Of a stretch of DNA of 57,232 bases, positions 1 through 51,639 are shown in pieces. Below the pieces are notes generated by a model that worked only from the letters and a program-made list of their open reading frames with translations, was not told the DNA's origin and searched no databases. Made by a program: the position numbers and the translations under genes. Origin of the DNA: Candidatus Omnitrophota bacterium (GTDB lineage Bacteria > Omnitrophota > Omnitrophia > JAHJGZ01 > JAFGJY01); assembly GCA_016928875.1 (NCBI GenBank), contig JAFGJY010000012.1, positions 1 through 57,232 of the forward strand. Reading direction: 5' to 3'. Positions within the stretch are counted from its first letter, which is position 1. Each line of letters opens with the position of its first letter.

Positions 1-812
1 ATCCACTGCGCCCATTCGGTCGTGCTACAATCTTCTTTATAGAGTTTACGGATCGTGCTTAAGCGCAGGTCGCTCGCCTGCGGCAGTTTGTTCTCGTGCT
101 TGACGAATTGTATGTTATCGAAATACAAAACCCCTTCAAGCACATCGGCCAAACGGCTGTCTAAAATGATTACGAACTCATCAACCGCGGTCCAGCCGGC
201 TAATTCGCCGTTATATGCGTCGATCGCACTGAAATGCGCAAGCGGTATCGAAACCCTCTGCCATGTTCCATTAACGTTCTTAACGGTATACGCGCCAACC
301 AACTTCTCAACGCGATCGTTATCCTTAAATTTCTTTAGCTCAACCTTGAACGTGGTCGTGTATTTCAGCTCGGGATCGCCTTTGACAAAAAATTCTAAAT
401 GCGTATAGCCGCGTGCATCCAAATTCATAAGTTTCATCCAATAACCATTCTGGGCGCGATCGGGCGATTCCAGGTCATAGGTGATCTTAAGTACCTTCGT
501 CGACAGTTCTGGTGAGGACATAGCAACGATTTCGGGATACACTGAAGTATGTTCTTCATTCGCATCTAAATTCCATGCGCCGCAACTGCCACCCAAGCGA
601 TTAATAAGGTCACCGTCCTCAAAATCATCGATCATGATCCGTTCCTCATTTATCGCAGGCTCACGCGTATTGCCCATTTCGCCGTTAAACCACTGAGATA
701 TATCGCTGGCAGGTTCCTCTCCCGGAGCAACACCGATCGCTGCGCATAGCCTCATCATGGTTGCAAACACAATGAATAATAAACACGCTAAAAATATGCC
801 TTTTCGCCTCAT
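1..812 (-). CDS. Secreted protein with CBM11/CIA30-like carbohydrate-binding signature (3' end runs off the window)
   Basis: Absent from the ORF track because no stop lies in the window. Manual minus-strand translation from the ATG at 812-810 gives MRRKGIFLACLLFIVFATMMRLCAAIG (signal peptide) ... IDDFEDGDLINRLGG ... VLYFDNIQFVK and stays open to position 3. Context is TAAGGAGACAGTATG, i.e. the GT2 stop, a GGAGA SD, then the start. Confidence 0.6.
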   Translation of the reverse strand, partial: MRRKGIFLACLLFIVFATMMRLCAAIGVAPGEEPASDISQWFNGEMGNTREPAINEERIMIDDFEDGDLINRLGGSCGAWNLDANEEHTSVYPEIVAMSSPELSTKVLKITYDLESPDRAQNGYWMKLMNLDARGYTHLEFFVKGDPELKYTTTFKVELKKFKDNDRVEKLVGAYTVKNVNGTWQRVSIPLAHFSAIDAYNGELAGWTAVDEFVIILDSRLADVLEGVLYFDNIQFVKHENKLPQASDLRLSTIRKLYKEDCSTTEWAQW

Positions 813-821
813 ACTGTCTCC

Positions 822-1856
822 TTACGTCTTGTTAGCCGATTGCTCAATGGTCCTATACGAAGTTCTGAGCACGTCTTCATCTTGCAGTACCACGTTCTTT
901 TTCTCCTTGATCCGCCTTAAACAAATGATAGGCACATATGGTAGTGCTCTTAAAAATCCTATCACATAACGCCATCTGCCGTTCAATAAGAATTTCATCA
1001 ATTTCACCGGAAGCCACGCAAGGTGCCCCACAAGGATCCGGGGTGACCTTATATTTTTCCACATAAAGATGAATTTATTGCGCCACATAAGCGACACAAA
1101 GAACACATTACTGAATGCACTGCGTGTTGTTGCCTCGCGTTTATGGTACGCCACAGAACGTGGTTCATAGGCGATCGTATACCCACGTTTCCATGCTCTA
1201 TAGGCAAGGTCAAGGTCTTCCCACGCATACGGGGTATATAACGTGTCAAAACCTTCGAGTTCGATAAAGAGTCTTTTTTTACATAAAAAACATGCGCCGC
1301 AAAAAAAGGTCACCCAATGCGCGACATCATACTTGGCGCGCTCGCTCTCAAGTTCAACAGAAAAAAGTCCTGAATAATACCGGCCATACCGTAACCCATC
1401 GTCGATCGTTTCTTTATCCCACCTGAGTATTTTGGGTGCAACAGCGAATACTTTTTCGTTCTGCAAACGTTCGTACAACGGCGTTATAAAACCGTCTTCC
1501 AAATATATATCATTGTTGAGGAACAACACTGTTTGAAAATTGGCTTGCTTAACGGCCAGATTGTTCGCCTTTGCAAAACCAAGGTTTTGGGGAAATTCAA
1601 TTAAGCAGAACGGTCTGTTGAGGCCGACAGATCCCACAGATATATTTCTGCATTCCCTCGTAGGGGCCATTGGCCTCAATGGCCCGTACATTTCTTTAAG
1701 ATATTCTATGGAACCATCGCTGGATCCATTGTCAACGATGATAAATTCGTACGGAATATCCCACCGAGACAGGTTGTCGACCACCTTTGGCAAGCATTCC
1801 TTGAGCAAGGATACGCCATTCCAGGTTAATAATATTACGCTGATACCAGGTTCCAC
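822..1856 (-). CDS. Glycosyltransferase family 2
   Basis: ISVILLTWNGVSLL, EFIIVDNGSSDGSIEYL and FLNNDIYLEDG motifs typical of GT2. GTG start overlaps the TAG stop of the upstream gene (TAGTG). Confidence 0.85.
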   Translation of the reverse strand: MEPGISVILLTWNGVSLLKECLPKVVDNLSRWDIPYEFIIVDNGSSDGSIEYLKEMYGPLRPMAPTRECRNISVGSVGLNRPFCLIEFPQNLGFAKANNLAVKQANFQTVLFLNNDIYLEDGFITPLYERLQNEKVFAVAPKILRWDKETIDDGLRYGRYYSGLFSVELESERAKYDVAHWVTFFCGACFLCKKRLFIELEGFDTLYTPYAWEDLDLAYRAWKRGYTIAYEPRSVAYHKREATTRSAFSNVFFVSLMWRNKFIFMWKNIRSPRILVGHLAWLPVKLMKFLLNGRWRYVIGFLRALPYVPIICLRRIKEKKNVVLQDEDVLRTSYRTIEQSANKT

Positions 1857-3709
1857 TATGTCGTACTCCTATATTTGCTTTGTAGGGACAGGTCGCGACC
1901 TGTCCCTACCTTCCCTGTTCTTCCCGTCTCAGAACACTCTATCACTCGTCCTTCTGATGTCATAGCCCACACCTTCGGACACTGTATCTGTTGCACAACT
2001 GTATGGACATTCTCGTATCCCTGTCCCTGTGAATTACCATAAACAATAATAATATGATCATATGCTTCATCCGAAAGTGATCGTAATAGACCTTTATCAA
2101 ATGTCTCAACATCCATATACCCCTTACCATATGAAAAGGCCTGCGTCACTTCATCCATAGCACGATATTCCTCGGCAACATCATCCTGAACTAATATATC
2201 AAGCCGAAAATCACGTTCTTCTGCATTTGTTAGTGCTTTGATCGCTTCTTTCATCTGCAGTGGCCTTGATGAACGCACGAGCAATACTTTGGTATCCTTC
2301 GTACAATGAGCTGTGATCTTCTCGATATTATCATTTATCGTATGCTTGAATCGATTGCAGAGCGCTATATCGTAAAAACGTTGTGATTCAAAATAATTAT
2401 ATGCGATCTGTTCCTTTTTATAATTCGGATACTCCACAACAACAAAATTGCCGCCATCGAATTCGCGTGCATTCTCGGAACGCAGATATCCTTGTTCTTT
2501 CGCCCATCGGTAATACGGCGTCCCCGGCTGTGGGGTGCAGATCGATGTTTGATACCGCCACAACAATTCTCGATTGATAAGTTGGTCCATAAGCCCAAGC
2601 GTTTCCTGATCGCTCTCATATGTCGAACCCGGAGCACCGAAGGTAAACGTGCCGTACATTTTAAGGCCGATCTCTTTAGCCTCGCGTAAAACCTGTTTTA
2701 ATTTTGCAATATTGTGTTTTGCGCCTAAGTTGACTCCCGCAGCACATGCAGTCGCAGCCGTCTCGATACCGATCCGTAACATATAATATCCGGATTCTTT
2801 CATCGCCTGCATCATTTCTCGGTCGAGCGTCGCATACGCACACATTGCATCGATCTTAAGATCATTAAGGTCGTGCTCTTTTAGCGCATGACACAAGTCC
2901 ATGATGAACGCTTTGTTGACATTATGGTATTCTTCATCAAAAAAGATCCCTTGCATCCGCGGGTACTTTGACTTGAGATAAACCAACTCTTTGATAATAG
3001 AACTTACGCGGCGCGGCCGCCAACTCGGTTTTCCTTGATAATACATCGTTCCGGCAACGCAAAACGAACAATGGAATGGGCACCCGCGCGATGCGTATGC
3101 CTGGATCTCGATATATTCACTCGAAGGCTCCCCCGGAATCGCATAATCAAAGCGCGAGACGTCTTCGTCCTCCGGCAGCGGCAAAAAGTTCACATCCAGC
3201 AATTCCCGCGGCGGGTTCGGATATAATCCACGAATATCCTTAAGCGGCTTATCCCGGAAGATATCCAATAACGTCATTTCGTACTCACCGATCAATATGT
3301 GGTCCGCGACCGTGCTGACCTCTTCCGGATACGCGATCGCATGTTGTCCGGCAATGATCAACTTTGTATCGCAACGCTGTTTCACTGCGAGCGCCAACGT
3401 TTTATCATCCTCCCACGTTCGGGTCGAACACTCCATGACCAGATAATCCGGCTTTTCTGCGCACAATACGTCCAGGTATTGCGCATGATCGTATTTTTTT
3501 AAACACCCGTCGATAAGTTTGACCGTGTGATGCGTCTCGCGCTTGAGAAGGGCCGTTGCGTATGCGAGCTCCCACGGATAGTATGTAAATACATTTCTAT
3601 TCGAGCTTGAATTGGTCCAGCGGCTCGGTGAATGGATGATAGCATACCCGTTCCTATCGATCCCGACCGAGTTAGCTAACACGATCTTTTTCGCGTTCTG
3701 CATGCCCAT
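1856..3709 (-). CDS. B12-binding-domain radical SAM protein (class B) with an extra ~150-aa C-terminal domain
   Basis: ASRGCPFHCSFCVAG (CxxxCxxC) follows a Rossmann-like N-domain (KKIVLANSVG...KLIIAGQHA). Preferred start is the ATG at 3709, 1 nt after the upstream stop. The track ORF uses the TTG at 3724. Confidence 0.85.
   Translation of the reverse strand: MGMQNAKKIVLANSVGIDRNGYAIIHSPSRWTNSSSNRNVFTYYPWELAYATALLKRETHHTVKLIDGCLKKYDHAQYLDVLCAEKPDYLVMECSTRTWEDDKTLALAVKQRCDTKLIIAGQHAIAYPEEVSTVADHILIGEYEMTLLDIFRDKPLKDIRGLYPNPPRELLDVNFLPLPEDEDVSRFDYAIPGEPSSEYIEIQAYASRGCPFHCSFCVAGTMYYQGKPSWRPRRVSSIIKELVYLKSKYPRMQGIFFDEEYHNVNKAFIMDLCHALKEHDLNDLKIDAMCAYATLDREMMQAMKESGYYMLRIGIETAATACAAGVNLGAKHNIAKLKQVLREAKEIGLKMYGTFTFGAPGSTYESDQETLGLMDQLINRELLWRYQTSICTPQPGTPYYRWAKEQGYLRSENAREFDGGNFVVVEYPNYKKEQIAYNYFESQRFYDIALCNRFKHTINDNIEKITAHCTKDTKVLLVRSSRPLQMKEAIKALTNAEERDFRLDILVQDDVAEEYRAMDEVTQAFSYGKGYMDVETFDKGLLRSLSDEAYDHIIIVYGNSQGQGYENVHTVVQQIQCPKVWAMTSEGRVIECSETGRTGKVGTGRDLSLQSKYRSTT
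1882..1909. repeat. Perfect 28-nt palindrome GTAGGGACAGGTCGCGACCTGTCCCTAC inside the last 18 codons of the radical SAM ORF
   Basis: Read directly; the two 14-nt halves are exact reverse complements. Same length and GTAGGG...CCCTAC termini as the intergenic palindrome at 21490-21517. Confidence 0.9.
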
Positions 3710-3710
3710 T

Positions 3711-5228
3711 TTATACTCTCGCAACTTCTTCCATTATCTTGTCTTTAACTGACTGATCGACCGGCTCATCCCTCAATGTAAGCGTGGTCTTGTCGAGCGA
3801 TCTCTTTAATATCTTATCAAGTTTTTTGATGTTATTTATCCTGTCCGTCCCCTGTATCTTAGAGCCTTGTGACATGAGATTGTATACATGCCGTTTCGGA
3901 TTACGGCTTATGATCTCCTCGATCTGCCGTAAATATAAATACAAGGTCTCATGGGTCGGGATACGTTTACCGCTATTGTTCTCGACATAGCGCACTTTGT
4001 TATTTTTGATCACTTCATAATGCATCATTTCGATCGTATTGAACCGGTTAACATCACGATACCACTTTTTCATCTCGATCGTGTTGGTCGAATAATATTT
4101 ATTAAGCGGGAATGCATAATCCATGCCCGCAAAAATGATCGGCTCACACCCTAATTGGAACATAACATCCAGCGCAATGCATGATACCGCACCACCCGCA
4201 TGGGTGAATGCTTTATTCTCAAAATGTTGTTCAAGTTTTTTAGTGATGGAGTTGTCCTTTTGAATAATACACATTTTGGGGCCTGAATATTTGTGTAAAC
4301 TATGTGTATCCATAGTCGGTAATGCGATCAATAATGCATGGTCCTTCTCTGAATAGGAAAAATGCTTGATCGTATCTGCTTGAGGATCGACGCTAAAGAC
4401 CACATCCGGCGTAATCCCCGCTTTTTGCAAAAATGGGTAGGAAGTGTCCGCGGTAAAGATAAACGCCTTATCAACATATTCCCTCAAGCTACCGAGCACG
4501 ATATCAAGCGACGGACCGGCGCTGATCAAGATCGCCGGCTTACCGTGAAAAACCTTCCTTAACTTTTCTATGTTCGGGGAGGCAAGAGTAATATCCAGAT
4601 TCTTAATGAAATTCTCTCTCTCGAGATCTCCAAACACTTCCGATGCCTTGCGCTCAAGCAACAAAAGATCAAAACTCTCTTTAATGCTGATCAAATGTTC
4701 CGGGAAACAATGATACGAAGGCAAATGAATAACGACCTTTTTCTTCTTCTCACTCACGTCAGCAAAATGCCGCGACAGTAATGCGGATAAACGCATCGCA
4801 AGGTGCCCCTCCGTCCTCCCGGCAATAAGATAAACTTCATGCTGAGCGAATATTTCCCTGAAATCAACAAGAATAAGGGCAGCATTCATAACATCAAAGT
4901 TCGGCTCGAAGATGATCAATTTCCCTTGTGGGCCGATACGCGTGAGCACTTCTTTGACATGATAGGCCAGACCGAAACCACACAAAAGAACACGGTCCCC
5001 CGGCTGCAGGTTCTGGGCCTCTATGAATCGTTGCGCTTCCTTGACCGGATCGTACGCACTATGCAGTAATATATTATTACAACGTATCGTGAGCGCAGCG
5101 GTACGCGTTTGCTCTATTTGAATGTTATCGGGCAGTTCAGTATCGAGCGTGATCAGTTCAGCATTGCTCATCCCACGCTCTTTTAAAAAATTTAAATTAC
5201 TGATCAAATGCATTTGATGTTCTAACAT
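3711..5228 (-). CDS. DUF115 / MptE-like, motility-accessory-factor (Maf)-type putative glycosyltransferase
   Basis: LHSAYDPVKEAQRF near the N-terminus and GKPAILISAGPSLD in the central domain are the hallmarks I associate with Maf/DUF115 proteins. Confidence 0.7.
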   Translation of the reverse strand: MLEHQMHLISNLNFLKERGMSNAELITLDTELPDNIQIEQTRTAALTIRCNNILLHSAYDPVKEAQRFIEAQNLQPGDRVLLCGFGLAYHVKEVLTRIGPQGKLIIFEPNFDVMNAALILVDFREIFAQHEVYLIAGRTEGHLAMRLSALLSRHFADVSEKKKKVVIHLPSYHCFPEHLISIKESFDLLLLERKASEVFGDLERENFIKNLDITLASPNIEKLRKVFHGKPAILISAGPSLDIVLGSLREYVDKAFIFTADTSYPFLQKAGITPDVVFSVDPQADTIKHFSYSEKDHALLIALPTMDTHSLHKYSGPKMCIIQKDNSITKKLEQHFENKAFTHAGGAVSCIALDVMFQLGCEPIIFAGMDYAFPLNKYYSTNTIEMKKWYRDVNRFNTIEMMHYEVIKNNKVRYVENNSGKRIPTHETLYLYLRQIEEIISRNPKRHVYNLMSQGSKIQGTDRINNIKKLDKILKRSLDKTTLTLRDEPVDQSVKDKIMEEVARV

Positions 5229-5242
5229 TTTGCTGATCCTAC

Positions 5243-6205
5243 TTATAAGATTGTATATCCAAACTTAAACAACTGGCCGTCCCAAAAATCACACACCAAA
5301 AATTCTTGCTCCTTTACATCGAATGCCCCGACCCGTACATCAAGCACTGTAGACATTCCTGTCTCTTTCTGCATTACCGCTTTGTTCTGATCGCTTCCCA
5401 GCCACAATACCCCCTGATCATCGACCGCTCCGCAATTTATTATGCCCGGGGCACCTCCATTACCGCTACCTGCCTTATTGTCAGCATGAATATATTGTTT
5501 ATGTTTAAGATCGGGCGAAAACACCGCAACGATATTATTGACCTTGTCGATCACGACAACATTGCCGTCCGGCAACACCATAAGTTCTTCGGGATATTCC
5601 ATCACGCCAACCCTAAATCCGCTGGCTTCAAATTGCGAATCCATAGAGCAGAACCGGGATGCGTTTACCAACCATCGTTTGTAATGCAGATTCGTTTTGA
5701 ACGATCTGCTTTCATAGAACTGCGGCATCGGTGCGTTGTTCTCAAAGGCCGCGACAACATGCCCTTTTTCGTTAAATGCTTGCAAACGGCCATTTGTACG
5801 CTCTGCCACATATAACGTTCCGTTCTTCCACGCTACGCTACACGGCTCATTGAACGTACCGTGATCGGTGCCAAAGGCACCGATCTGTCGCATGAACACT
5901 CCGTTCTCATCGAACACTTGTATCCTGTGATTCCACTTGTCAGCAACATAAATACATCCTTCAGAGTCACAACATAACGATGAAGGATACCAAAATTCAC
6001 CCGGGCCCTTACCCTGTTTTCCAAAACAACCTCTTTGTTCAAGATCCGTATCGAAACGAAATATTTTATGGCCTATTTCGTCAACTACCAAGATCTCGTG
6101 ACGAACTATCTTGATACAGGCAGGAGCAAAGAGCGGCTCCTGCTGCCGCACATTCTTGGCCAACAACAATGAACTTGAGATCTGTCCGCTATATTGTACT
6201 GTCAT
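5243..6205 (-). CDS. NHL-repeat beta-propeller protein (no signal peptide)
   Basis: Repeated NHL-like units IYVADKWNHRIQVFDENG and LYVAERTNGRLQAFNEKG. Confidence 0.65.
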   Translation of the reverse strand: MTVQYSGQISSSLLLAKNVRQQEPLFAPACIKIVRHEILVVDEIGHKIFRFDTDLEQRGCFGKQGKGPGEFWYPSSLCCDSEGCIYVADKWNHRIQVFDENGVFMRQIGAFGTDHGTFNEPCSVAWKNGTLYVAERTNGRLQAFNEKGHVVAAFENNAPMPQFYESRSFKTNLHYKRWLVNASRFCSMDSQFEASGFRVGVMEYPEELMVLPDGNVVVIDKVNNIVAVFSPDLKHKQYIHADNKAGSGNGGAPGIINCGAVDDQGVLWLGSDQNKAVMQKETGMSTVLDVRVGAFDVKEQEFLVCDFWDGQLFKFGYTIL

Positions 6206-6214
6206 ATATACCTA

Positions 6215-7414
6215 TTAACGCAAAAGCTGAGCTCTGTCCTTTATCTTATTAAAAAGCTCCATATCCATCTGCTCTAAGATACGCGAAACCTCTATGGCCT
6301 CCGCATATTTCTTCTCTTCTTCCAACGTGTAGTAAAGCAGGAAAAAAGCCCGCGTAAATTTCGGACATAGCCGGACCGCTTCCCGCAAGGTTGATTCAGC
6401 CGCTTCCAAATTACGCTCTTTATAATAGACCGCACCAAGATTGTAGCGATACAGTACCGACGTCGGTCTCAAGTTCACGGCCTTGACCAGCGAATTGATC
6501 GCCTCTTGTACTCTCCCGGTTTCATAATAGGCTATCCCAAGCATCATGAATGCCTCGCTATAGCGCGCATTGAACCCTATGACCTTCTCCAAAACCTCGA
6601 TCGCTTCCGCATACATCGTGCAATGATAATATGCCGAAGCCAGATTCGTATAGACCAGTTCCGAGTTCGTACCCAGTTGCGTCGCACGTTCTAAGTATGC
6701 AACGGCTTCCGGATAACGCTGCAGATCGTGATACTGCCGACCCAATAAAAAACATGTTTTAACGCTGTACGGATCGTTCCCGTATTCTTTTAAAAGTATG
6801 CGTAAATACCTTTCCTGTTTTTCCCGTGCAGCCTCACTGCGAAAATCCTTTCGATAGTGATGAATCGGAATATCGGTATATTTTATTTTCCGCGGCGTGA
6901 TGGTATCATCAACGAGCTCATGGACTATGCCTTCAAAATAAATATGCGGGATATTTTTAAAAAAACGGATCACCGGCACATCGGCATATCCGGTAAATTG
7001 TTTGCCCTCCTCATAATCAGTGCGATTGGCGCACCAATTTTCGGCCGAAGGGTCTTCAAAATAGTTTCTTTGATAAAAACCGGCCGCTTCATATTTCTCA
7101 CCGTGCATAATAGCGCGTATCTCGTCATGATCGCGTTTGGCTATCACTTCATCAGCATCTAATACCAATATCCAATCACCCTGCGCCTGCTTTAAGGAAA
7201 AATTCCGCGCTGCCGCAAAATCGTCATGCCATTCATAATCATACACGGCGGCCCCATGCTTAAGGGCGATCTCACGGGTCGCATCTTGCGAATTGCTATC
7301 AACGACAACGATCTCGTCAACCAGCTCTTTTACACTTAACAGTGCCCGTTCTAAGTTCGCTTCTTCATTATGAACGATCATGCACAATGTGATCTTGGGT
7401 TCCTTAGGCATCAT
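6215..7414 (-). CDS. Glycosyltransferase family 2 fused to C-terminal TPR repeats
   Basis: ITLCMIVHNEEANLERALLSV, VVVDSNSQDATREIA and VLDADEV (DxD), followed by TPR-like repeats (GRQYHDLQRYPEAVAYLERA ...). Confidence 0.85.
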   Translation of the reverse strand: MMPKEPKITLCMIVHNEEANLERALLSVKELVDEIVVVDSNSQDATREIALKHGAAVYDYEWHDDFAAARNFSLKQAQGDWILVLDADEVIAKRDHDEIRAIMHGEKYEAAGFYQRNYFEDPSAENWCANRTDYEEGKQFTGYADVPVIRFFKNIPHIYFEGIVHELVDDTITPRKIKYTDIPIHHYRKDFRSEAAREKQERYLRILLKEYGNDPYSVKTCFLLGRQYHDLQRYPEAVAYLERATQLGTNSELVYTNLASAYYHCTMYAEAIEVLEKVIGFNARYSEAFMMLGIAYYETGRVQEAINSLVKAVNLRPTSVLYRYNLGAVYYKERNLEAAESTLREAVRLCPKFTRAFFLLYYTLEEEKKYAEAIEVSRILEQMDMELFNKIKDRAQLLR

Positions 7415-7599
7415 TATGACAAAAATACCCTTTATTATATTTATAGTTATGGGTAACTGCTTTTTTCATCATAAGGCATATGAGGTCACTAACAAAATGA
7501 AAAAAACGTGCTATCGTTGAGAGCGATTATATTTGGTATTTTATGCAGGAAACCGGTTAGATGAATAACACCACGCGGCACTGTTTGAACCCCGCCCGT

Positions 7600-8844
7600 T
7601 TAAACCATCTCGGTGTGTACGCTGTCAAGGTCTTGGATATTTATACGAAGTTGCATGATGGCCCGAGATACGGCGGCCTCGGCTTCTTCCCTATCATTGC
7701 CCGTGGCAATGATGTTGGCCACTTTGCCAAGATTGCTGCGTAATGGATAAACAATATCTCCTTCACGCAAATTGAGAATGATGCGTTCAATCCCGGGGAT
7801 CGTAAGTGCTTCATCAACACCTTCGATACTATCGATCCTGCCGGGACGCGTTACGACCGCACGTTCGATCGCTACTCGATCCCATTTCGGCGTGATCAAA
7901 AAATGATCGAGGCGCTCTCCGATGGCAAGTTGTACCGCCGCCCGCGTGGAGTTCATACCGGTCGCCAGATATTCGGTGAACTGCGAGTGAAAACCGCCGC
8001 TCAACCGTGCGGTGATCTCACCGATCCTTGCCCCGTCTCTGGTGATCTTGATATCCGCCTTTGCAGCCCCATGTTTTATACCGATCGCCCGGATCGCACG
8101 GCGCATCATGTCAAAGGCATCTGCGATCTGATCCTTGGAAAGTGCAGAAGGAATAGTATGGCCCATCTCAATAAAATAAGGGGGATTTTCTATGTGGCGA
8201 TCGGCAACTGTAATGAGATGAATCGTATCATGTTCGACCAATGTATCCATGCTGATCTCAGGCCCTTCCATATATTCTTCAAGGATCACTGCCGGAGAAG
8301 AATAATGCCCGCTGAATTGGAGAGAACAAACAAACTGTTCCCGCAGTTCTTCGTATGTATCGATACGCCGCACGCCGCGTGCCCCCATGTTATCGACCGG
8401 CTTGATGACCAACGGAAAACCCAATGAAGCCGCAACATCATATGCCTGCTCAAGACCGGTTACTTGCCTAAACCGCGGGACCGGCACGCCCGCTTCAAAG
8501 AGCTTTGTGCGCATATGAAATTTATTTGTCGCGCAAAATGCTGCATCGACCGAGATGCCCGGCAAGCCGAGCGCATCCGCAACACATGCAACAGAATACG
8601 CAACATCCGTTCCTGCGGTCATTATTCCACGCACATTGTATGTACGAGTGTATTTTTTAACGCACGTGACTATAGCAGGAATGTCTTTGGTACTTACACA
8701 CTCAAAGAGATCGCAATGCTCTCTGCCCGGCGCCAGGTCATTGCGATCAACGGCCAATACCGTAAGCCCGAGTTCCTTGGCCTCACGGATCGCCTTGATC
8801 TGAAAGAGCCCTGCTCCGATAATAATGATAAGATCTTTTTTCAT
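7600..8844 (-). CDS. ATP-grasp domain ligase
   Basis: N-terminal IIIIGAGLFQIKAIREAKELG, then FPLVIKPVDNMGARGVRRI and LEEYMEGPEISMDTL, typical of the ATP-grasp fold. Confidence 0.8.
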   Translation of the reverse strand: MKKDLIIIIGAGLFQIKAIREAKELGLTVLAVDRNDLAPGREHCDLFECVSTKDIPAIVTCVKKYTRTYNVRGIMTAGTDVAYSVACVADALGLPGISVDAAFCATNKFHMRTKLFEAGVPVPRFRQVTGLEQAYDVAASLGFPLVIKPVDNMGARGVRRIDTYEELREQFVCSLQFSGHYSSPAVILEEYMEGPEISMDTLVEHDTIHLITVADRHIENPPYFIEMGHTIPSALSKDQIADAFDMMRRAIRAIGIKHGAAKADIKITRDGARIGEITARLSGGFHSQFTEYLATGMNSTRAAVQLAIGERLDHFLITPKWDRVAIERAVVTRPGRIDSIEGVDEALTIPGIERIILNLREGDIVYPLRSNLGKVANIIATGNDREEAEAAVSRAIMQLRINIQDLDSVHTEMV

Positions 8845-8864
8845 AACAAATCGTCTACCTGCGT

Positions 8865-9872
8865 TTAACGTTTACGTGCAAGTTTTTCAATTATACCCAA
8901 CACTCTGAAAATCCCCTTGCCATCAACGATCTCTTTGCCCGCATCAGAGAGTTTTTTCCGGAATTCAAGGTTATCACATACCTTACGTAACCTTTTATTA
9001 AGCTTGTTCACTGAGACCTTTTTACCGAGACCTACATCCAAGACCGCATTTTTTCGCTCAAGACGTTTAACATTTTTTACCTCGTCGGTATTCTGCGAGA
9101 CGACAAGTGTCGGAGTGCCGAGACACAATGATTCGAACATCGTCAGCCCGCCGTTAACGATCGCGCAATCCGCCCACAAAAGTGGTTTGACGAGCGTCTC
9201 AAGGTCCTCGAGAAAATACACACGTTCGTGATTCTTCCATTTTTGCTTTATGTGATGGATATCCTTGAAGGTCGGTCCAAGGATCACTGCGGTATTGAAT
9301 GTATAATCGACCCCCTCCAAACATTCCAAGATCTTTTGGGTATAATTATGCGGATCACCGCCGCCGATAGCAACGACCAGATTTTTGACATGTTTATGTA
9401 ACGTCCGGGATCGCTTATGCTCACGCGCGAAATCATCGTGCAAGATAACATATTTGGGCCCGAAGAGCTTTTTCTTGTTTTCGCGGCGATTAGCATCGAT
9501 CACGACATCCGCCAGGTCAGCACCATCACCAAGGTCATCGAAATTCACCAGACGGGCTTTCGCGAGGCTGATCGCCTGCATATAATCTGATGATGTATTT
9601 TTAATATCGTTCACAATGATCTTGGGCGACCAATCGCTGAGAAACTGGGTAAAGACGTTTAAATCCTCGTTCGCATCGATATCCTTCTCCAAATAATGTG
9701 TTTCGATACCTGTTTTCTTAAGGATCGTACTTGATTCCTTGGTCTTTTTTGTAAAAAAAGCGACGTCGAATTTTCCCCGTAACCATTGCGCAAGATTGAT
9801 ACACCGACGCAAATGTCCGAACCCTATTTCATTACTACCATCACATCTAAAAACGATCTTGGCTAATTTCAT
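8865..9872 (-). CDS. PseG-like UDP-sugar hydrolase / GT28-C-type protein
   Basis: IVFRCDGSNEIGFGHLRRCINLAQWL matches the PseG/SpsG N-terminal signature. Size is 335 aa. Confidence 0.65.
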   Translation of the reverse strand: MKLAKIVFRCDGSNEIGFGHLRRCINLAQWLRGKFDVAFFTKKTKESSTILKKTGIETHYLEKDIDANEDLNVFTQFLSDWSPKIIVNDIKNTSSDYMQAISLAKARLVNFDDLGDGADLADVVIDANRRENKKKLFGPKYVILHDDFAREHKRSRTLHKHVKNLVVAIGGGDPHNYTQKILECLEGVDYTFNTAVILGPTFKDIHHIKQKWKNHERVYFLEDLETLVKPLLWADCAIVNGGLTMFESLCLGTPTLVVSQNTDEVKNVKRLERKNAVLDVGLGKKVSVNKLNKRLRKVCDNLEFRKKLSDAGKEIVDGKGIFRVLGIIEKLARKR

Positions 9873-9873
9873 A

Positions 9874-10491
9874 TTACAATTTCCTTATTTTTATTCCGCG
9901 TGATTCATATTGTTTTATTTGACGATAGATCTCCTCTTGATGTCCTGACGAAGAGATCACCACCGCATCCGGCATGATCTCCTCGATCTTTGATGGAGCT
10001 TCGATAATATTGCCGAAAAATTCACGGCCTTGCTTGTTCACGTTCCCATCGACGACACCGATCACCTTCAAGCCAATGCAGTCCGCGGCATTCAGGGTTA
10101 TTTCTGCTGTTTCAGCCGCACCGTAAAGGACGATCGAACGAATACCTTCGGCCAGAAATTCATTTAATTTGGTCTGTATCTCTTCTTTTACATTTTTATA
10201 CAACCCTACTGTTTCACGAAAATACGATAGCAGAAGAGAAAACCGGTGTGCTTCACCCGCGTTCGTGATCGTATAGCGCATGTCACGATTATTGCCTTGT
10301 ACGGAAATATACCCTTTTTTAATGAAGGTTTTAATATAATTGTTGACCATAGCGGGAACGATGCCGGCACGCGATGCTAATGCGCTTTGGGTAACACGAT
10401 GATTAGCCGCGATCTCATCAAGCAAAACAAGTTCACGGAATAATGAGGTGGGATGCAAAAAACGCAGATTATGCGCGATAAGCTGAGTCAT
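9874..10491 (-). CDS. Winged-helix DNA-binding domain fused to a Rossmann-like domain; putative regulator
   Basis: VTQSALASRAGIVPAMVNNYIKTFIKKGYI (wHTH-like), then IVLYGAAETAEITL...LKVIGVVDGN. Ends 1 nt before the PseG-like gene. Confidence 0.5.
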   Translation of the reverse strand: MTQLIAHNLRFLHPTSLFRELVLLDEIAANHRVTQSALASRAGIVPAMVNNYIKTFIKKGYISVQGNNRDMRYTITNAGEAHRFSLLLSYFRETVGLYKNVKEEIQTKLNEFLAEGIRSIVLYGAAETAEITLNAADCIGLKVIGVVDGNVNKQGREFFGNIIEAPSKIEEIMPDAVVISSSGHQEEIYRQIKQYESRGIKIRKL

Positions 10492-10612
10492 GAATAATGA
10501 TGATTACAGGTTAAATGATAATTGTCGCCAATTACCGGTTGGGTATTATATACATACTATTAACTTACAGATTTAATTATATAGTCACTGAATAAATATT
10601 CAAGGTAAAAAA

Positions 10613-11701
10613 TTATACGCGAATAACTTTATACATCAACACGCTACCAATTGCCGACATCAAGACAAATGGCGTCCACAATGCAATGTGCGGCGCCACC
10701 AATCCTTGCAGAGAAACCGCTTGGGCCCATGAATAGAAAACATAATAAATAGTAAGTACCATTAACGCTAACCCAAAGCTTATCAACATGTTACCACGTC
10801 TTGTAATGATGGCTATCGGCAGTCCCAATATTGTAAATACCAAACACCCAAATGAAAACGAGATCTTTTTATGGATCTCTATCACATATTCCCTTCTCTT
10901 TGCCTCTGAGAGGCCGGATGATCTAAGCTTCTGAACTAATTCATCGATACTGTATTCCTTGGTCTTTTTTCCTATTAAATTAATATTTTCGAGATCGAGC
11001 AACGGTAACTCATATATGCTGAAATCAAGCTTATTGAAAACCTTAGTATCTTCTTCATCAGGTTCATCGATCGTTCCGTTATATAACCGGACTTTGATCT
11101 TTGATTCATGCTCGAGACGTACTACTTCACACCGCTCAGCCAGGATCGTACGTGTCGGCTTACCTTCCTGAGGCTGATACACCGTTACATTTTTTAGCTC
11201 ATTTTGTCCGACTTCACGCGCCAAGAACACATAACCATTATCGAGTTCAGCCGGAATGCCTGGCTTTATATATGCAAAGGGATCTTTAATAAATAAACTC
11301 TTGAGAGTTTTTCGAGATAAGAAACTATACCGTGGGACGATCTGATCTGAGAGGATAAGCACAAAGATCGAAAGCAGCAAGCCAATGACTATCACCGGCA
11401 TCATAACTTTAAAGGGATTAACACCGTGGGCCCGGATAGCAATGATCTCGTTATGTTCCGCAAAATCACCGAAGACAAGTAAGATCGAGGTGAGCACGCT
11501 TGTGGGTAACGTAAATATTAGCATTTGGGGAATGATCAACGCGAGGAATTTCATTAACTCAAAAAAATCAACGCCGCGATTAAGCAATAGGTCCGCGATC
11601 TTGACCACATTGCCCACAAGAAAGATGAACGTCAAGGTCACGACCGATATGAAAATAGGATAACACAATTCTCGTAATATATAGTTGCGTAGTATTTTCA
11701 T
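10613..11701 (-). CDS. LptF/LptG-family (YjgP/YjgQ) LPS export permease
   Basis: MKILRNYILRELCYPIFISVVTLTFIFL N-terminus, 362 aa, multiple TM segments. Confidence 0.8.
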   Translation of the reverse strand: MKILRNYILRELCYPIFISVVTLTFIFLVGNVVKIADLLLNRGVDFFELMKFLALIIPQMLIFTLPTSVLTSILLVFGDFAEHNEIIAIRAHGVNPFKVMMPVIVIGLLLSIFVLILSDQIVPRYSFLSRKTLKSLFIKDPFAYIKPGIPAELDNGYVFLAREVGQNELKNVTVYQPQEGKPTRTILAERCEVVRLEHESKIKVRLYNGTIDEPDEEDTKVFNKLDFSIYELPLLDLENINLIGKKTKEYSIDELVQKLRSSGLSEAKRREYVIEIHKKISFSFGCLVFTILGLPIAIITRRGNMLISFGLALMVLTIYYVFYSWAQAVSLQGLVAPHIALWTPFVLMSAIGSVLMYKVIRV

Positions 11702-11750
11702 GGAAATTCAATATGATGAGATATGTTGAGTTGTCGTAACAGAAGCGATC

Positions 11751-12008
11751 CTAACGGGCACCGTTCACCGGCCGCGCTATTTCCTGGATCTCTATCGGAT
11801 TATTGCGTACGGCACTATCTTCCAAGAACCCCTTCACCTTGATCATAGACTGGTCATTCATAGAAAAGAGGCCTTCTACCTTGCTGCGGACCGCAGCGTT
11901 ATCTTTATATAGCAAAAAGGTTTGGACGAAGATCGCTATCGCAAGAATCACGAACGCGATCTGCCATATGTGTTTCTGCCTACGAACACGCTTTAACGTA
12001 TTTGGCAT
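11751..12008 (-). CDS. Small membrane-anchored hypothetical protein
   Basis: ATG at 12008 is preceded by an AGGAGAG SD. One TM segment (IWQIAFVILAIAIFVQTFLLY). No family recognised. Confidence 0.5.
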   Translation of the reverse strand: MPNTLKRVRRQKHIWQIAFVILAIAIFVQTFLLYKDNAAVRSKVEGLFSMNDQSMIKVKGFLEDSAVRNNPIEIQEIARPVNGAR

Positions 12009-12096
12009 ATATATCACTCTCCTCTTACGGTACCTTACTATACCTTAAGTATATCATATATCGACTTATTTTGAGGTTAATTTTAGCTTAAAATTT

Positions 12097-13497
12097 TTAA
12101 ACTTTTTTTATATCCTTTTTCGCTTCGATCTTTGCGGAAACCTGTCCCCGCTTACGCGATGAAAGACTCACGTATTCCCTATGAACAGTTACGTTCTTAT
12201 ACGCAGGACGAATGATGCGCGGAGATACCATTAATTCCTCGATCCGGTGCGCCATCCAGCCGGCGATACGCGCAACCGCAAAAAGCGGCGTATAGACTTC
12301 GGTCGGAATACCCAAACAATCATATACAAATCCTGAGAAAAAGTCGACATTCGGAGAAATGACCTTCTTGCTTCCTTTGATCTCCCCAAAAACCTCAGGC
12401 ACGAGTTCTTCCATCGCAAGATACAACACCAGTTCTTTTTCCCGTTTTTTCTGTTTCGCCAATTTGATCGCAAATTCCTTAAGCAGGATCGCGCGCGGAT
12501 CGGACCTCGTATACACCGCATGGCCAAAACCGTATACTTTACCGCTCTTATCCGCCGCTTCACCCTTTATGATCTTAACCAGATGATCCTTAAGCTTTGC
12601 TTTATTGTTCCAGGGATGAACATTATTTTTCATATCTTCCATCATACTCATAACACTTTTATTCGCGCCGCCATGCAACGGTCCTTTCAACGAACCGATC
12701 GCTGCCGAAATAGCGGAATAGGTATCAGTACCACTTGAAGAAACAACGCGGGTCGTGAACGTTGAATTATTCCCGCCGCCGTGATCGGCATGGAGGATCA
12801 ACATAATATCCAGCACTTGCGCTTCTAATTTTGTGAATTTCCCGTCTGGACGTAACATATGCAAAAAATTCTCCGCTGTCGAGAGCTCATCAAGCGGTTG
12901 ATGAATGAACAGGCTTTCTCCAATGAACTTGTGCTGGCGCGCATGATACGCATAAGCTGTAATAACAGGGAATTTAGCTATTAAACTGATCGCTTGTCGT
13001 ACTAAATTCGGCAACGATGTATCATCAGGATTTTCATCCACACTGTAGAGCGCAAGGACGCTACGTGCCAGACTGTTCATGACATCCGGGGTTCTAAAGG
13101 TCAAGATAATATCTCGCACAAAATTCCCCGGTAAATGCCGCTCGTGTGCAAAGTATTTTCCGAACTCTTTTAATTCGCTTTTAGTTGGTAATTCCCCGAA
13201 TAAAAGCAAATAAGCGACCTCTTCAAACCCAAAACGGTCTTCAGTCGTTAAACCATTCACGATATCTTTAATGTTGACACCGCGATATTCGAGCTGACCT
13301 TCGACAGGATGAATGTCCTCATCTCGTTTCTCGAACCCTATGACCGTAGAAATTTCGGTCAGTCCGACCAATACTCCGCTGCCATCTTCATTACGCAATC
13401 CTCGTTTTACATTGTATGTTTGATAGAGTGACGGAGATATTCTGTTATTGGCTACGCACTTATCAGCTAATTTTTGTATGATCACTCTGTTACCCAT
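12097..13497 (-). CDS. Citrate synthase
   Basis: LILHADHGGGNNSTFTTRVV signature. Start set at the ATG at 13497 (MGNRVIIQKL, G-rich SD upstream). The longest ORF (to 13566) would overlap the PilZ gene. Confidence 0.9.
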   Translation of the reverse strand: MGNRVIIQKLADKCVANNRISPSLYQTYNVKRGLRNEDGSGVLVGLTEISTVIGFEKRDEDIHPVEGQLEYRGVNIKDIVNGLTTEDRFGFEEVAYLLLFGELPTKSELKEFGKYFAHERHLPGNFVRDIILTFRTPDVMNSLARSVLALYSVDENPDDTSLPNLVRQAISLIAKFPVITAYAYHARQHKFIGESLFIHQPLDELSTAENFLHMLRPDGKFTKLEAQVLDIMLILHADHGGGNNSTFTTRVVSSSGTDTYSAISAAIGSLKGPLHGGANKSVMSMMEDMKNNVHPWNNKAKLKDHLVKIIKGEAADKSGKVYGFGHAVYTRSDPRAILLKEFAIKLAKQKKREKELVLYLAMEELVPEVFGEIKGSKKVISPNVDFFSGFVYDCLGIPTEVYTPLFAVARIAGWMAHRIEELMVSPRIIRPAYKNVTVHREYVSLSSRKRGQVSAKIEAKKDIKKV

Positions 13498-28551: not shown

Positions 28552-29040
28552 CTATTTAATGTATTTTGTGAACGCACCCTCCCAATATATAAGAAATCCA
28601 ATGATACCGACACAAAGCACGAAAAAGACCACTTGCATTATTTTTACGTGCTGCCGAAACCGTACGACCTTCTGCTGGGCCTCTGTTTTTTCCAACGCTG
28701 CGTTGCGCTTTTGCTCAAAATTCTCGCGCAATTCTTCGTTCCTTATCTGTTCTGCTTGCTCACGCGCTTTACGCTCGTCCATAACCTTTTTGTGTTGCTT
28801 ACGCATCTGGATCGTTTCCGTAAGCTCGGCACTGTCGTTCATATCGAATGAAGAGATCGGATCATAAAACACGTCTTCCGATTCCAATCCTAGGCGTTCT
28901 TCATACGCCTGTATCCTCGCCCCTGCAAAAAGATCGTCTTCAGTGTGTTTTGCTTTTTCTTCGGTTAAATAGAACGCTTCACCGCTCCTGAAAATGCCAA
29001 GGATGATACATAAAAAAAAGAATATGCGCCAACACCTCAT
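28552..29040 (-). CDS. Signal-peptide + coiled-coil + C-terminal TM protein (paralog of 30806-31288)
   Basis: MRCWRIFFFLCIILGIFRSGEA, an E/K/Q/R-rich centre, and C-terminal MQVVFFVLCVGIIGF. ATG at 29040 lies 8 nt after the upstream stop; the track ORF starts at 29061. Confidence 0.6.
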   Translation of the reverse strand: MRCWRIFFFLCIILGIFRSGEAFYLTEEKAKHTEDDLFAGARIQAYEERLGLESEDVFYDPISSFDMNDSAELTETIQMRKQHKKVMDERKAREQAEQIRNEELRENFEQKRNAALEKTEAQQKVVRFRQHVKIMQVVFFVLCVGIIGFLIYWEGAFTKYIK

Positions 29041-29048
29041 CTTCTCGC

Positions 29049-30620
29049 TCACTCTCTCCATTCAGTTATACGCCACACCTGATCGCTGGGCAATCCAAGC
29101 TGAATGAACCAATCAGCATTTGTTGTCATAAACCGGCTGTGCAATCGTAGATCATAAAATAAGTTCAGCGAATTGTCATAACATATCGCTTCATCTTTTG
29201 CCAATAACGCGCCAAATACTGTAAGGTTCTTGACTTCTCCGGCAATAGCATGATTCGTAAAAAGAACACCCTCGATGCTCCCTATATCATTGGTCGCGAT
29301 ATCACCAAAGCCTTCGATATCTTCAGGACAATACGCGAATTCAGTGATCGGAACACTGGTCTGGACATCAGACCACCCATAATTATCATCCATAATTCCG
29401 TCGCCGTCGAGGTCCTCATACTCCGCTTGGAATTCACCATCATTTTCATAATCATCGTCGGTACCAGGAATACCATCTTCACCAACATCTTCATCCCCTT
29501 TATTAAAAAGGACGGTATCTGCGGTCCATTCGCCGCCCGTCGTGGATGTATAATCACCTAGGATAATATTTTCCCGCGCCGCGTAACAAATAATATCTTC
29601 ATCCATGTTATTTTCATACCACGTATCCATGGCTTCTTCATTCGGCAGAGCAGTCCCGGGACTGTTCTTATACGTTGTGTTATCCGCAACATAAATGTTA
29701 CGACCTGAGTAGATCGTCCCATGTCCCATGATCTTTCCTTTTACAATAACATCACCACGAATAACAACAGGACCATATACTTCAATAGGATTTTGTACAG
29801 TGCCGATCAGTATGATGTTACCGCATTCGTCCCCGTCGTCGCCGAAAACTCCGTCAACAATAACCGTTCCGCCCACACTTATCGAGGCATTATTGGCAAG
29901 TGCCATTTCTTCATATTTTGTAAGATCGCTAAGATTAGGCATAGGTAATTCAGTGGAAAAAGGATGTTGATACGGGAACTCACCATCTTGTTCGTAACTT
30001 GCCGTACCACGTATGTCACCGTCATCCGTATCGATCTCTCCTGAGGCATAGATCTCGCCGTTAACGGTCGGATTTTCATCGAAATAAAAAGGCCCGTTAG
30101 ACCGAATATCGCCGCGAGCCAGAATGCCGTTGCCATAAAAAGTACCGAGATTATTCATGAAATAGACATAATCAAAGATCGACGGCCCTGCATTTTCTTT
30201 GCTGATCGTTACAAAGATCGTTTTAGTCGCACTACGGACGAGTGCCGATGATTCCACAATAAATGAAGCAGCTTCCGGTTTTATCATGACATCAATTGCA
30301 TTATCCCCTAAGAAATTATCTCCAACTTCGCCGACCGCATCCAATTTGAATCCTTCTATCGCATAATCGGCTGTCGGTAAATTATGTGCTTTATCCAGCT
30401 GATTGACCTCGTATAAAGCCCGTTGGATGCCTGCTTCTGCAAGGTATAAGGCCGCTGTTGAATCCACCACATGCTGAACATTTTTGATCTCATTGACCGA
30501 CATGCTCATACTGATGCCTGCGATCATAGTACTCATAGCCACAAATACGACGACAAGCATGAGCGCCATACCGCGGTTGGATGATAGTAAACGAATATGA
30601 GTTCTTGTGAACAAATACAT
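29049..30620 (-). CDS. PilX-N/GspK-like minor (pseudo)pilin with a large G/D/N-rich, acidic Ca-binding-like C-terminal region (copy 1)
   Basis: SNRGMALMLVVVFVAMSTMIAG...ALYLAEAGIQRAL, and EDLDGDGIMDD (DxDxDG). About 60 percent identical by eye to 31293-32846. Both end in EWRE. Confidence 0.65.
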   Translation of the reverse strand: MYLFTRTHIRLLSSNRGMALMLVVVFVAMSTMIAGISMSMSVNEIKNVQHVVDSTAALYLAEAGIQRALYEVNQLDKAHNLPTADYAIEGFKLDAVGEVGDNFLGDNAIDVMIKPEAASFIVESSALVRSATKTIFVTISKENAGPSIFDYVYFMNNLGTFYGNGILARGDIRSNGPFYFDENPTVNGEIYASGEIDTDDGDIRGTASYEQDGEFPYQHPFSTELPMPNLSDLTKYEEMALANNASISVGGTVIVDGVFGDDGDECGNIILIGTVQNPIEVYGPVVIRGDVIVKGKIMGHGTIYSGRNIYVADNTTYKNSPGTALPNEEAMDTWYENNMDEDIICYAARENIILGDYTSTTGGEWTADTVLFNKGDEDVGEDGIPGTDDDYENDGEFQAEYEDLDGDGIMDDNYGWSDVQTSVPITEFAYCPEDIEGFGDIATNDIGSIEGVLFTNHAIAGEVKNLTVFGALLAKDEAICYDNSLNLFYDLRLHSRFMTTNADWFIQLGLPSDQVWRITEWRE

Positions 30621-30805
30621 GCCGTACCTTTTTGAATGTATGTATTATAGTAATGTGTAGGATTAGTAATTAGCAGTCAATGTACTATAACTATAGCACA
30701 TATTTATGGGTTTTAAAGGGGAACGGAAGAAATACCTAGAGCATAAAATGATTCGGATTGCATATAAGTCTTTTCCTGGCAACAAGTTAAGTTTTATAAG
30801 CAAGA

Positions 30806-31288: not shown

Positions 31289-31292
31289 CCTT

Positions 31293-32846: not shown

Positions 32847-32881
32847 GGCTATCACCACCCTTTACTTTCTTTATACGATTA

Positions 32882-42648: not shown

Positions 42649-42727
42649 GGCAAAAATCCTTTCTCATCGCGCACTGCACGACGGCATCCCTGTCATTTCC
42701 GGCTGCATTAGGATAGTCGCAAAATGC

Positions 42728-43102: not shown

Positions 43103-43337
43103 AATGACACCTCCTAATGTCTTTATAATACTCAAAATTTTAGTAAACACAGTCCCACTTCCCTTTTAATATTTATTAGCATTAACCCTCTCTAATAAAA
43201 TGAGTTAGGTGATATTTCGCCGTGTGAAAGCTGACTCGAAATCAAGAAAACAGAGTATATATCAAAGGATGGTAAAATGCAAGAATATATTAAATAGTAT
43301 ATAGTTATACGAAAATTAGGCGAGAGTATGAAAGTGC

Positions 43338-47160: not shown

Positions 47161-47211
47161 CGTTCTTTATTTCTCTCCTAGATATAGAATAGCGGTACGA
47201 TACGTATAGGC

Positions 47212-50415: not shown

Positions 50416-50417
50416 GT

Positions 50418-51596: not shown

Positions 51597-51639
51597 ATGT
51601 GCACCTACCTCTTTGTCTCTGTTTTAATAAAAAAGATCT

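Follow-up and report, generated by a model that had tools for sequence, protein, structure and literature searches.

The window analysed here, a 57,232-nt stretch with a GC content of 45% (contig JAFGJY010000012.1 of assembly GCA_016928875.1, Candidatus Omnitrophota), carries at its beginning a gene island centred on a maf gene (MAF_flag10/DUF115 family; 3711-5228, minus strand). The island extends from position ~10491 to ~5.2 kb past position 1, spans ~16 kb and is bounded by lptF/G and fusA. We consider it moderately probable that this island encodes a Maf-type system for the cytoplasmic O-glycosylation of a protein with nonulosonic acid, supplied with uncommon tailoring genes, in an uncultured sediment Omnitrophota. 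An earlier note on this DNA (hereafter the original prediction) had also described a cluster centred on Maf, which our data bear out, and had assigned it to a pathway apart from the Maf/nonulosonate systems, which they do not.

Nonulosonate genes in and beyond the window

Every substantial open reading frame (ORF) of the window was annotated by profile searches (Pfam, NCBIfam). The ORF at 8865-9872 (minus strand) codes for a PseG-type UDP-6-deoxy-hexosamine hydrolase of GT-B fold, which passes the TIGR03590 cutoff (158.2 bits against 153.55, E 3e-46) and whose N-terminus, KIVFRCDGSNEIGFGHLRRC, containing GFGH, aligns to C. jejuni PseG (3hbm). This gene overturns the statement that none of the expected nonulosonate partners lies within the 57 kb. 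The NeuB-type synthase and the CMP-transferase, likewise reported as missing, were both found on L002, a Logan contig that overlaps window positions 1-1907 and extends past position 1; since L002 continues with both genes, their absence is an artefact of the window edge. In order, the sequence beyond position 1 encodes a family 2 glycosyltransferase (GT2) on the opposite strand, a Gfo/Idh/MocA oxidoreductase, a cytidylyltransferase (CTP_transf_3) and a synthase of the NeuB family; EF-G comes next. The synthase and the cytidylyltransferase are within 5.2 kb of the window. The NeuB homologue matches PF03102 at 6e-82, and its best PDB matches are SpsE (1vli, 1e-55) and PseI (8h2c, 9e-53).

L002 comes from the sediment metagenome run (SRR13394437) in which a contig matching the window exactly was found, and both have a depth of ~17x. 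The two sequences are 98.2% identical across the 1907-nt overlap, and because the 34 differing positions leave the encoded protein identical at 268 of 270 residues, L002 represents a strain variant. All 34 differences fall inside window positions 45-396 and are nearly all synonymous, with 2 amino-acid changes in 270; this 350-nt segment, exactly where the window's contig ends, shows localised strain variation or recombination.

As to the identity of the sugar, PseG points toward the pseudaminic route, and the NeuB homologue matches SpsE slightly better than PseI. SpsG is presumably a PseG-like protein. In the sps pathway of B. subtilis, legionaminic acid is made via the hydrolase SpsG (PMC7439481). 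We leave the product as a putative 5,7-diamino-type nonulosonate of the pseudaminic/legionaminic type, with no narrower assignment. Literature searches on a role of Gfo/Idh/MocA proteins in legionaminic acid clusters returned nothing relevant.

Directly downstream of pseG, an ATP-grasp carboxylate-amine ligase of the L-amino-acid-ligase type is encoded at 7600-8844 on the same strand (LAL_C2 1.9e-18, ATP-grasp_4 2.3e-16). An orthologue with 71% identity is found in a related lineage (contig L004), and an ATP-grasp gene also occurs in a flagellar island described below (L019), as does SfmE, an ATP-grasp protein, in the sfm Maf island of Shewanella (PMC3765264). The ligase may N-acylate the sugar precursor or the nonulosonate itself.

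Conservation of the block

The six minus-strand ORFs of the original prediction are all present, separated by the short spacers or overlaps claimed for them (9, 14, 1, -1 and 9 nt in the order of transcription), and the profile searches agree with the domain calls made for five of them. They encode a GT2 with tetratricopeptide repeats (GT2-TPR, 6215-7414; Glycos_transf_2 7.6e-22 plus multiple TPR families), a cytoplasmic NHL-repeat beta-propeller of 320 aa (5243-6205; PF01436 6.8e-16, DUF5128), the Maf protein, a radical S-adenosylmethionine (radical SAM) enzyme of 617 aa (1856-3709; PF04055 4.5e-12, motif CPFHCSFC), a GT2 that we call GT2a (822-1856; PF00535 3.9e-18) and the first 270 codons of a secreted protein of 711 aa (1-812).

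Together with the genes beyond position 1, this block recurs in three further lineages, represented by contigs L003, L004 and L012, whose Maf proteins are 52, 65 and 50% identical to that of the window, respectively. The window and the three contigs share the order NHL, Maf, radical SAM, GT2, glycoside-hydrolase-like (GH-like) enzyme, opposite-strand GT2, Gfo/Idh/MocA, cytidylyltransferase and NeuB, with an extra GT2 sometimes sitting between the Gfo/Idh/MocA and cytidylyltransferase genes. In each of the four lineages the block closes downstream with the NeuB-type synthase and the CMP-sugar synthetase; the opposite-strand paralogous GT2 and the secreted GH-like enzyme also belong to it. NHL orthologues directly upstream of Maf are 34-45% identical to that of the window, and GT2-TPR orthologues (58-67% identity) precede the block in L003 and L004, while the L012 contig starts at its NHL gene. 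In L003 a gene for a 562-aa GT9 protein (heptosyltransferase family, 7284-8972) is inserted between GT2-TPR and NHL. A fifth lineage, on the 1.9-kb contig L015, keeps the adjacency of Maf and radical SAM. The NHL, radical SAM and GT2 genes are thus truly co-conserved with Maf in related lineages, and the proposed DUF115-radical SAM-NHL association is kept, always, however, alongside nonulosonate genes.

The Maf subfamily itself appears small. In a search of 5.8 billion clusters, five proteins shared 48% identity or more with it, and since a metagenome scan with the subfamily profile added only L015, we regard it as rare. Our comparison of UvrB, for which relatives reach 73-81% identity and all named matches are Omnitrophica/Omnitrophota at 62-65%, places the host on a deep branch of Candidatus Omnitrophota. 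No description of the same gene set was found in the literature searched.

The Maf protein

The 505-aa protein encoded at 3711-5228 matches PF01973 with 129.9 bits (cutoff 34.6, E 1.1e-37) and the Maf-specific N-terminal domain Maf_flag10_N (PF20157) with 29.4 bits (cutoff 23.5). Its family profile matches the M. magneticum Maf structure 5mu5 at 4.4e-29 across 394 positions, the match to MptE being far weaker (1.3e-11). The residues G238-P-S-L241, D281 and G368-x-D370 are invariant across 34 Mafs, D242 is unchanged in all five members of the subfamily alignment, and GPSLD (238-242) aligns with GSGPSIDDD of 5mu5. Judged by position only, D242 is the putative counterpart of D247/D261, the acidic residue required for activity in Shewanella Maf-1/Maf-2.

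These results bear directly on the reading of the original prediction, in which the DUF115 protein takes part in an undescribed pathway without nonulosonic acids and the radical SAM enzyme, the NHL protein and the GT2s attach some other modification. The DUF115/MptE-like domain does occur in a pterin pyrophosphokinase as well (8sd5), and the accessory genes depart from those usual in Maf systems. However, the Maf-specific N-terminal domain and the two structure matches just given speak for a Maf, PseG lies in the window, and in four lineages maf is conserved together with the genes for the NeuB-type synthase and the CMP-sugar synthetase. The inference of a different pathway is unsupported, because its premise, that there are no pse or neu genes, is false; the reading is largely refuted and we regard it as very improbable.

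Part of the argument for that reading was that the partners are not those of Maf systems. This holds for the NHL propeller, which is not a known Maf partner, but not for the TPR-GT2, since GT2+TPR proteins are predicted as flagellin glycosyltransferases in Clostridium islands, in C. sporogenes (PMC13317340). In the window's protein, the GT2 catalytic domain occupies residues ~10-121 and the C-terminal TPR residues ~190-385. By analogy, GT2-TPR is a candidate for direct protein O-glycosylation, for binding of the acceptor, or for both.

To bind their acceptor, Mafs depend on a separate or fused module: a C-terminal TPR in Maf-1, the small partner GlfM in Maf-2 (bioRxiv 10.1101/2023.12.03.569772). 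The window's Maf has neither a C-terminal TPR nor a helical domain, its end at residue 505 aligning with about residue 509 of the 666-aa 5mu5, the point at which the catalytic region of that structure ends, and no GlfM-like small gene follows maf, as the radical SAM gene begins 1 nt past the maf stop and leaves no space. A TPR domain is present only on the neighbouring GT2. Because the short Maf lacks a TPR and the locus lacks room for GlfM, we propose the NHL protein and/or GT2-TPR as the acceptor-recognition device. The NHL propeller, which has no hydrophobic segment, could be an adaptor or specificity factor. When it was searched with phmmer against 1.84 billion representatives, the 76,790 matches were swamped by the NHL repeats of giant proteins and orthologues were not discernible among them.

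A sister Maf clade (34-35% identity; L005 10001-12015, L013 3044-5064) comprises Mafs of ~474 aa, each with a ~198-aa TPR gene that overlaps the maf stop. The two genes are flanked by mutL and rnd, nonulosonate and flagellar genes being absent from their surroundings, and look as if the TPR-bearing Maf-1 architecture had been divided in two; comparison of its small TPR protein with the TPR of GT2-TPR gave generic TPR similarity only.

The acceptor

Flagellin is the most likely acceptor, a choice in which we have moderate confidence. The nearest Maf relative with an informative context, P0011 on L019 (31% identity), stands in a flagellar island with FlgK, two flagellins, FliW, CsrA, FlaG, FliD, PseB, PseC, FliB and an ATP-grasp gene, and in an Omnitrophica metagenome-assembled genome (MAG; L018) a FliD-Maf-FliS arrangement is followed by a PseB-like gene. 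All experimentally studied Mafs act on flagellin (bioRxiv 10.1101/2023.12.03.569772; PMC4065374).

Several observations weigh against this choice and the wider interpretation given at the outset. The original prediction had seen no flagellin in the 57 kb; our annotation agrees and goes further, as no flagellar gene of any kind was found among the annotated ORFs, nor on ~9 kb of L002, which brings the total to ~66 kb, nor in L003, L004 and L012, and maf usually has its place in flagellar loci. Most of the Omnitrophota described so far lack motility genes; none were reported in 14 MAGs (PMC8542988), and a phylum-wide study of Omnitrophota does not mention flagella (PMC10066038); on the other side, Ca. 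Omnitrophus magneticus is flagellated according to work cited in PMC8542988, and FlgV homologues are reported in Omnitrophota (PMC11607428). Homologues of PseB, PseC and PseH were not found in the island, the window or L002 (~66 kb). The NeuB homologue stays below the cutoffs of both NCBIfam models, NeuB_NnaB (348.4 against 399.65) and PseI (269.7 against 340.25). The roles given to NHL, GT2-TPR, ATP-grasp and the radical SAM enzyme are inferred only. The secreted glucanase-like enzyme and the presence of three GT2s hint at a connection with a surface glycan. Lastly, the only transcript match found for the island is a 249-nt metatranscriptome contig of the same study, which matches window positions 8334-8582, in the ATP-grasp gene, exactly; none covers maf.

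The lack of flagellar genes in the stretches just listed and of motility genes in many Omnitrophota (PMC8542988) would also fit an organism that has no flagellum and applies the same nonulosonate/Maf chemistry, guided by the NHL propeller and/or the TPR domain, to another protein prior to its export, be it a pilin, a surface-layer or giant adhesin-like protein, or the secreted enzyme of the island itself. The short Maf, which has neither of the known flagellin-binding devices, and the NHL protein are consistent with such an acceptor, and legionaminic acid is used off flagella in the B. subtilis spore crust (PMC7439481), SpsE being the best PDB match of the NeuB homologue. The experimental record of Mafs and the flagellar contexts of the nearest relatives, one of them in an Omnitrophica MAG, argue the other way; moreover, flagellated Clostridium sometimes encodes Maf and nonulosonate genes away from its flagellar loci (PMC13317340), and the pilin-like genes at 28.5-33.8 kb lie ~18 kb from the island with housekeeping genes between. 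We give a non-flagellin acceptor, the main rival, a minority chance that deserves to be taken seriously. Somewhat less likely still is the fuller proposal that a Maf "protein sialyltransferase" was recruited in a non-flagellated Omnitrophota nanobacterium for a surface or secreted protein other than flagellin, with specificity supplied by NHL and/or TPR-GT2 and a nonulosonate-containing glycan tailored by the radical SAM enzyme and GT2.

The original prediction had named as targets the co-encoded secreted protein or the pilins. The former turns out to be a GH-like enzyme, and the pilin-like genes, upstream of the island and behind housekeeping genes, were rejected as the target since they show no linkage to it. 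The pilin-like cluster itself (28552-33828) has prepilin-type N-termini at 33394-33828 and 32882-33397 and contains a tandem two-gene duplication, in which the 521- and 523-aa proteins have a hydrophobic N-terminus and are 59% identical, and the 160- and 169-aa copies, which combine an N-terminal signal with a C-terminal anchor, are 23% identical. Four of its six proteins had no family-model match.

The radical SAM enzyme and its glycosyltransferase

The radical SAM enzyme (1856-3709) consists of an N-terminal Rossmann domain resembling B12-binding domains, a CxxxCxxC TIM-barrel core and a C-terminal Rossmann-like domain at residues ~470-590. In an AlphaFold2 model built from 60 homologues (mean predicted local distance difference test, pLDDT, 91.9), the barrel and the Rossmann N-domain are present. 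The best fold match is AprD4 (6fd2; E 8.6e-21, TM score 0.79 normalised to the target) at 16-17% sequence identity, followed by the cobalamin-dependent methylases MgmA, TsrM, CysS and TokK. AprD4, a radical SAM 1,2-diol dehydratase, catalyses the 3'-deoxygenation of paromamine, an aminoglycoside, and is not known to require cobalamin. The cobalamin-binding family PF02310 is recorded for many homologues and is not significant for the window's enzyme. HpnJ is the best NCBIfam match (E 2.2e-42); an assignment as HpnJ was rejected on the score, 145.6 bits against a cutoff of 577.6. No hopanoid genes are nearby.

The C-terminal domain of ~150 aa, left unassigned in the original prediction, folds confidently (pLDDT 93.4) as a five-stranded Rossmann-like domain, although it has no significant fold match (E<=0.001), and it carries the conserved motifs RSxRMWQ and YNNxxGxGY. 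Its weak best folds are the N-terminal halves of GT9 heptosyltransferases and halves of UDP-GlcNAc 2-epimerases, and it is treated as a generic Rossmann-like fold. A GT9 gene lies upstream of the radical SAM gene in L016, besides the one inserted in L003; this may be coincidence.

The family is large, with 481 relatives at E<=1e-20, mostly of ~580-615 aa including the C-terminal domain, and abundant in marine Nitrospinota. The window's lineage was not among the genomes found in a radical SAM profile scan of species-representative genome contigs. A GT2 follows the radical SAM gene in nine loci from several phyla: GT2a overlaps the radical SAM stop by 1 nt, and a GT2 also directly follows the homologues in L003, L004, L012, L007, L008, L009, L016 and L017; outside the Maf clade this is so in seven of eight loci, the GT2 being related to GT2a or to GT2b of the island. 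Such loci, in Nitrospinales, Lindowbacteria, an Omnitrophica MAG and unclassified MAGs, contain neither Maf nor NHL. Among the genes around them are those for an SDR sugar epimerase/dehydratase, a GT28-like protein, a GHMP kinase, a cytidylyltransferase, a rhamnosyl O-methyltransferase, PMT_2 and GT9. These loci outside the Maf clade show that the constant partner of the radical SAM enzyme is a GT2, not Maf, and that its context is glycan biosynthesis. From this context and from the fold, we predict that radical SAM-GT2 is an independently mobile two-gene module that modifies a sugar. Literature searches for a radical SAM enzyme together with pseudaminic acid found nothing relevant.

Two contigs, one from a Nitrospinales MAG (L006 5260-9410) and one from an unclassified MAG (L011 103-8440), each encode two full-length radical SAM paralogues that are 41-51% identical to the window's enzyme; here the GT2 that normally comes directly after the gene is lacking. 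At its 3' end, the window's radical SAM gene contains a perfect 28-nt palindrome, GTAGGGACAGGTCGCGACCTGTCCCTAC (1882-1909), that encodes a tail of 20-odd residues which is disordered (pLDDT <50) and absent from the orthologues. The 31-mers at 1878-1910 reach a depth of 55-115x and recur in several other contigs of the run, one of which has the ~17x depth of the genome itself; the palindrome looks like a dispersed REP-like (repetitive extragenic palindromic) element and coincides with an assembly break.

The secreted enzyme and the question of a polysaccharide

The "secreted CBM-like protein" of the original prediction, with its IDDFEDGD...YFDNIQF stretch found as described in the partial ORF 812-><1, comprises only residues 1-270 of a protein of 711 aa (L002:1096-3231). 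A signal peptide with a hydrophobic stretch (residues 4-31) is followed by an unassigned beta-rich N-terminal domain, and the C-terminal domain matches PF10091 with 82.6 bits (cutoff 27, 3.9e-23) and DUF3131. The C-terminal ~420 residues match the Cgs/NdvB structure 8rf9 at 4.3e-45, the cyclization domain 8wy1 at 7.5e-44 and GH144 (5gzh) at 2e-6, so that the protein is, judging from these matches, a predicted GH-like enzyme of the (alpha/alpha)6 type related to beta-1,2-glucan-acting enzymes. Compared with Cgs/NdvB and GH144 (SGL clan), it is secreted and stand-alone, has its own N-terminal domain and is not fused to a glucan synthase.

This enzyme raises the question of whether the product could be a nonulosonate surface polysaccharide, such as a lipopolysaccharide O-antigen, a capsule or a modified beta-glucan, with Maf joining sugar to sugar, the GT2s building the backbone and the GH-like enzyme trimming it. 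Three GT2 genes plus GT2-TPR accompany a secreted enzyme homologous to beta-1,2-glucan-acting domains, the island abuts lptF/G, radical SAM-GT2 modules elsewhere occur among polysaccharide-type genes, and L003 has its extra GT9. Against this, the annotation of the island revealed no flippase, polymerase, ABC exporter or initiating phosphoglycosyltransferase, and the conserved block likewise has no Wza-type exporter or chain-length regulator. All island proteins except the 711-aa one, the transferases among them, have neither signal peptides nor membrane-spanning segments and are predicted to be soluble. No precedent was found for a Maf acting on a glycan acceptor, and TPR-GT2 fusions are typical of protein-directed transferases. 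Because the proteins are soluble and a flippase, polymerase, exporter and initiating transferase are lacking, cytoplasmic protein glycosylation is favoured over polysaccharide assembly, which we consider improbable.

Under the favoured protein glycosylation scheme, a UDP-linked 2,4-diamino-2,4,6-trideoxyhexose would come from PseB/PseC-type enzymes whose genes lie elsewhere. It would undergo N-acylation, for which the ATP-grasp ligase is a possible enzyme, and release from UDP by the PseG-type hydrolase; the NeuB-family synthase would then condense the sugar with phosphoenolpyruvate and the CTP_transf_3 cytidylyltransferase would activate the product, the family membership of these last three enzymes resting on the matches given above. 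The short Maf would transfer the CMP-sugar to Ser/Thr of the acceptor protein in the cytoplasm, and the NHL propeller and/or the TPR of GT2-TPR would probably supply acceptor recognition. As suggested by its context and fold, radical SAM-GT2 may add a sugar and modify it by radical chemistry, through deoxygenation/dehydration or C-methylation, to extend or tailor the glycan.

Comparison with known systems

The locus is not a new category. Hypervariability of the tailoring genes is a known property of flagellar and nonulosonate glycosylation islands. With the Maf flagellin islands of Campylobacter, Aeromonas, Shewanella (Maf-1/Maf-2-GlfM) and Clostridium it shares the Maf N-terminal domain and MAF_flag10 core, soluble enzymes, PseG, a NeuB-type synthase, a cytidylyltransferase, an ATP-grasp protein (Shewanella SfmE) and a GT2+TPR (C. 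sporogenes). It differs from them in having no flagellar gene within ~66 kb, a short Maf without TPR or GlfM and no PseB/PseC/PseH in the island, as well as in the added NHL propeller, radical SAM-GT2, paralogous GT2 and secreted glucanase-like enzyme, and in its Omnitrophota host.

The B. subtilis sps operon (SpsG, SpsE, SpsF) shares with the island the PseG-like hydrolase, the NeuB-family synthase and CTP_transf_3, and sets the precedent that a hydrolase-synthase-cytidylyltransferase trio can make legionaminic rather than pseudaminic acid and serve a non-flagellar surface. In contrast, there is no Maf in sps, homologues of SpsM, SpsC and SpsD were not seen here, and the Gfo/Idh/MocA protein is a conserved extra of the island. 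The radical SAM enzyme resembles AprD4, its best fold, and HpnJ, its best profile, in combining a Rossmann N-domain with a CxxxCxxC barrel. The tight pairing with a GT2 is a further shared trait, HpnJ having the GT2 partner HpnI in the hopanoid pathway. As differences, the radical SAM enzyme here scores a quarter of the HpnJ cutoff and has the extra C-terminal domain, and GT2a has no match to the HpnI model.

If our interpretation is true, Maf-type nonulosonate protein glycosylation extends to Omnitrophota, a phylum without isolates. How a minimal Maf flanked by an NHL propeller and a TPR-GT2 finds its acceptor would constitute a natural experiment, and the chemistry of radical SAM-GT2, once known, would annotate a sizeable uncharacterised family with hundreds of relatives.

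Transcriptional organisation and the first gene

An operon starting at 7414, as originally proposed, is probably not what is present, given that a winged helix-turn-helix (wHTH) gene, pseG and the ATP-grasp gene lie upstream on the same strand and that ATP-grasp also stands upstream of GT2-TPR in L004. The 185-nt gap at 7415-7599 is indeed AT-rich (36.8% GC against 45% for the window) and is a possible internal promoter. It contains a 9/12 sigma-70-like match at 7495-7468, not above chance, and a 10/12 match is found upstream of the wHTH gene at 10603-10576; since such matches are no commoner than in shuffled sequence, they were not taken as evidence on operon structure. An Rfam scan of window positions 1-12200, this gap included, gave no match to a cobalamin or other riboswitch.

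The wHTH gene (9874-10491, minus strand), whose spacer to pseG is 1 nt, encodes a 205-aa protein with an HTH_24/MarR N-terminal part and a Rossmann-like C-terminal part assigned to Methyltransf_14, and its NCBIfam matches are MarR_EPS and the N-terminal region of NeuD. Two domains are similar to the Rossmann-like part: the N-terminal one of NeuD/PglB acetyltransferases and the C-terminal one of sugar C-methyltransferases. Encoded by the first gene of the island, the protein is a candidate regulator that could sense a nucleotide sugar.

Other loci of the window

Away from the island, a tandem pair of AcrB-type RND pumps (1035 and 1067 aa) is encoded at 44053-53703 together with a HlyD-type adaptor and an outer-membrane factor whose length, 687 aa, is unusual. 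At 41188-43150, a gene for a stand-alone 140-aa AMPK-type glycogen-binding/CBM48 protein precedes the glycogen synthase gene.

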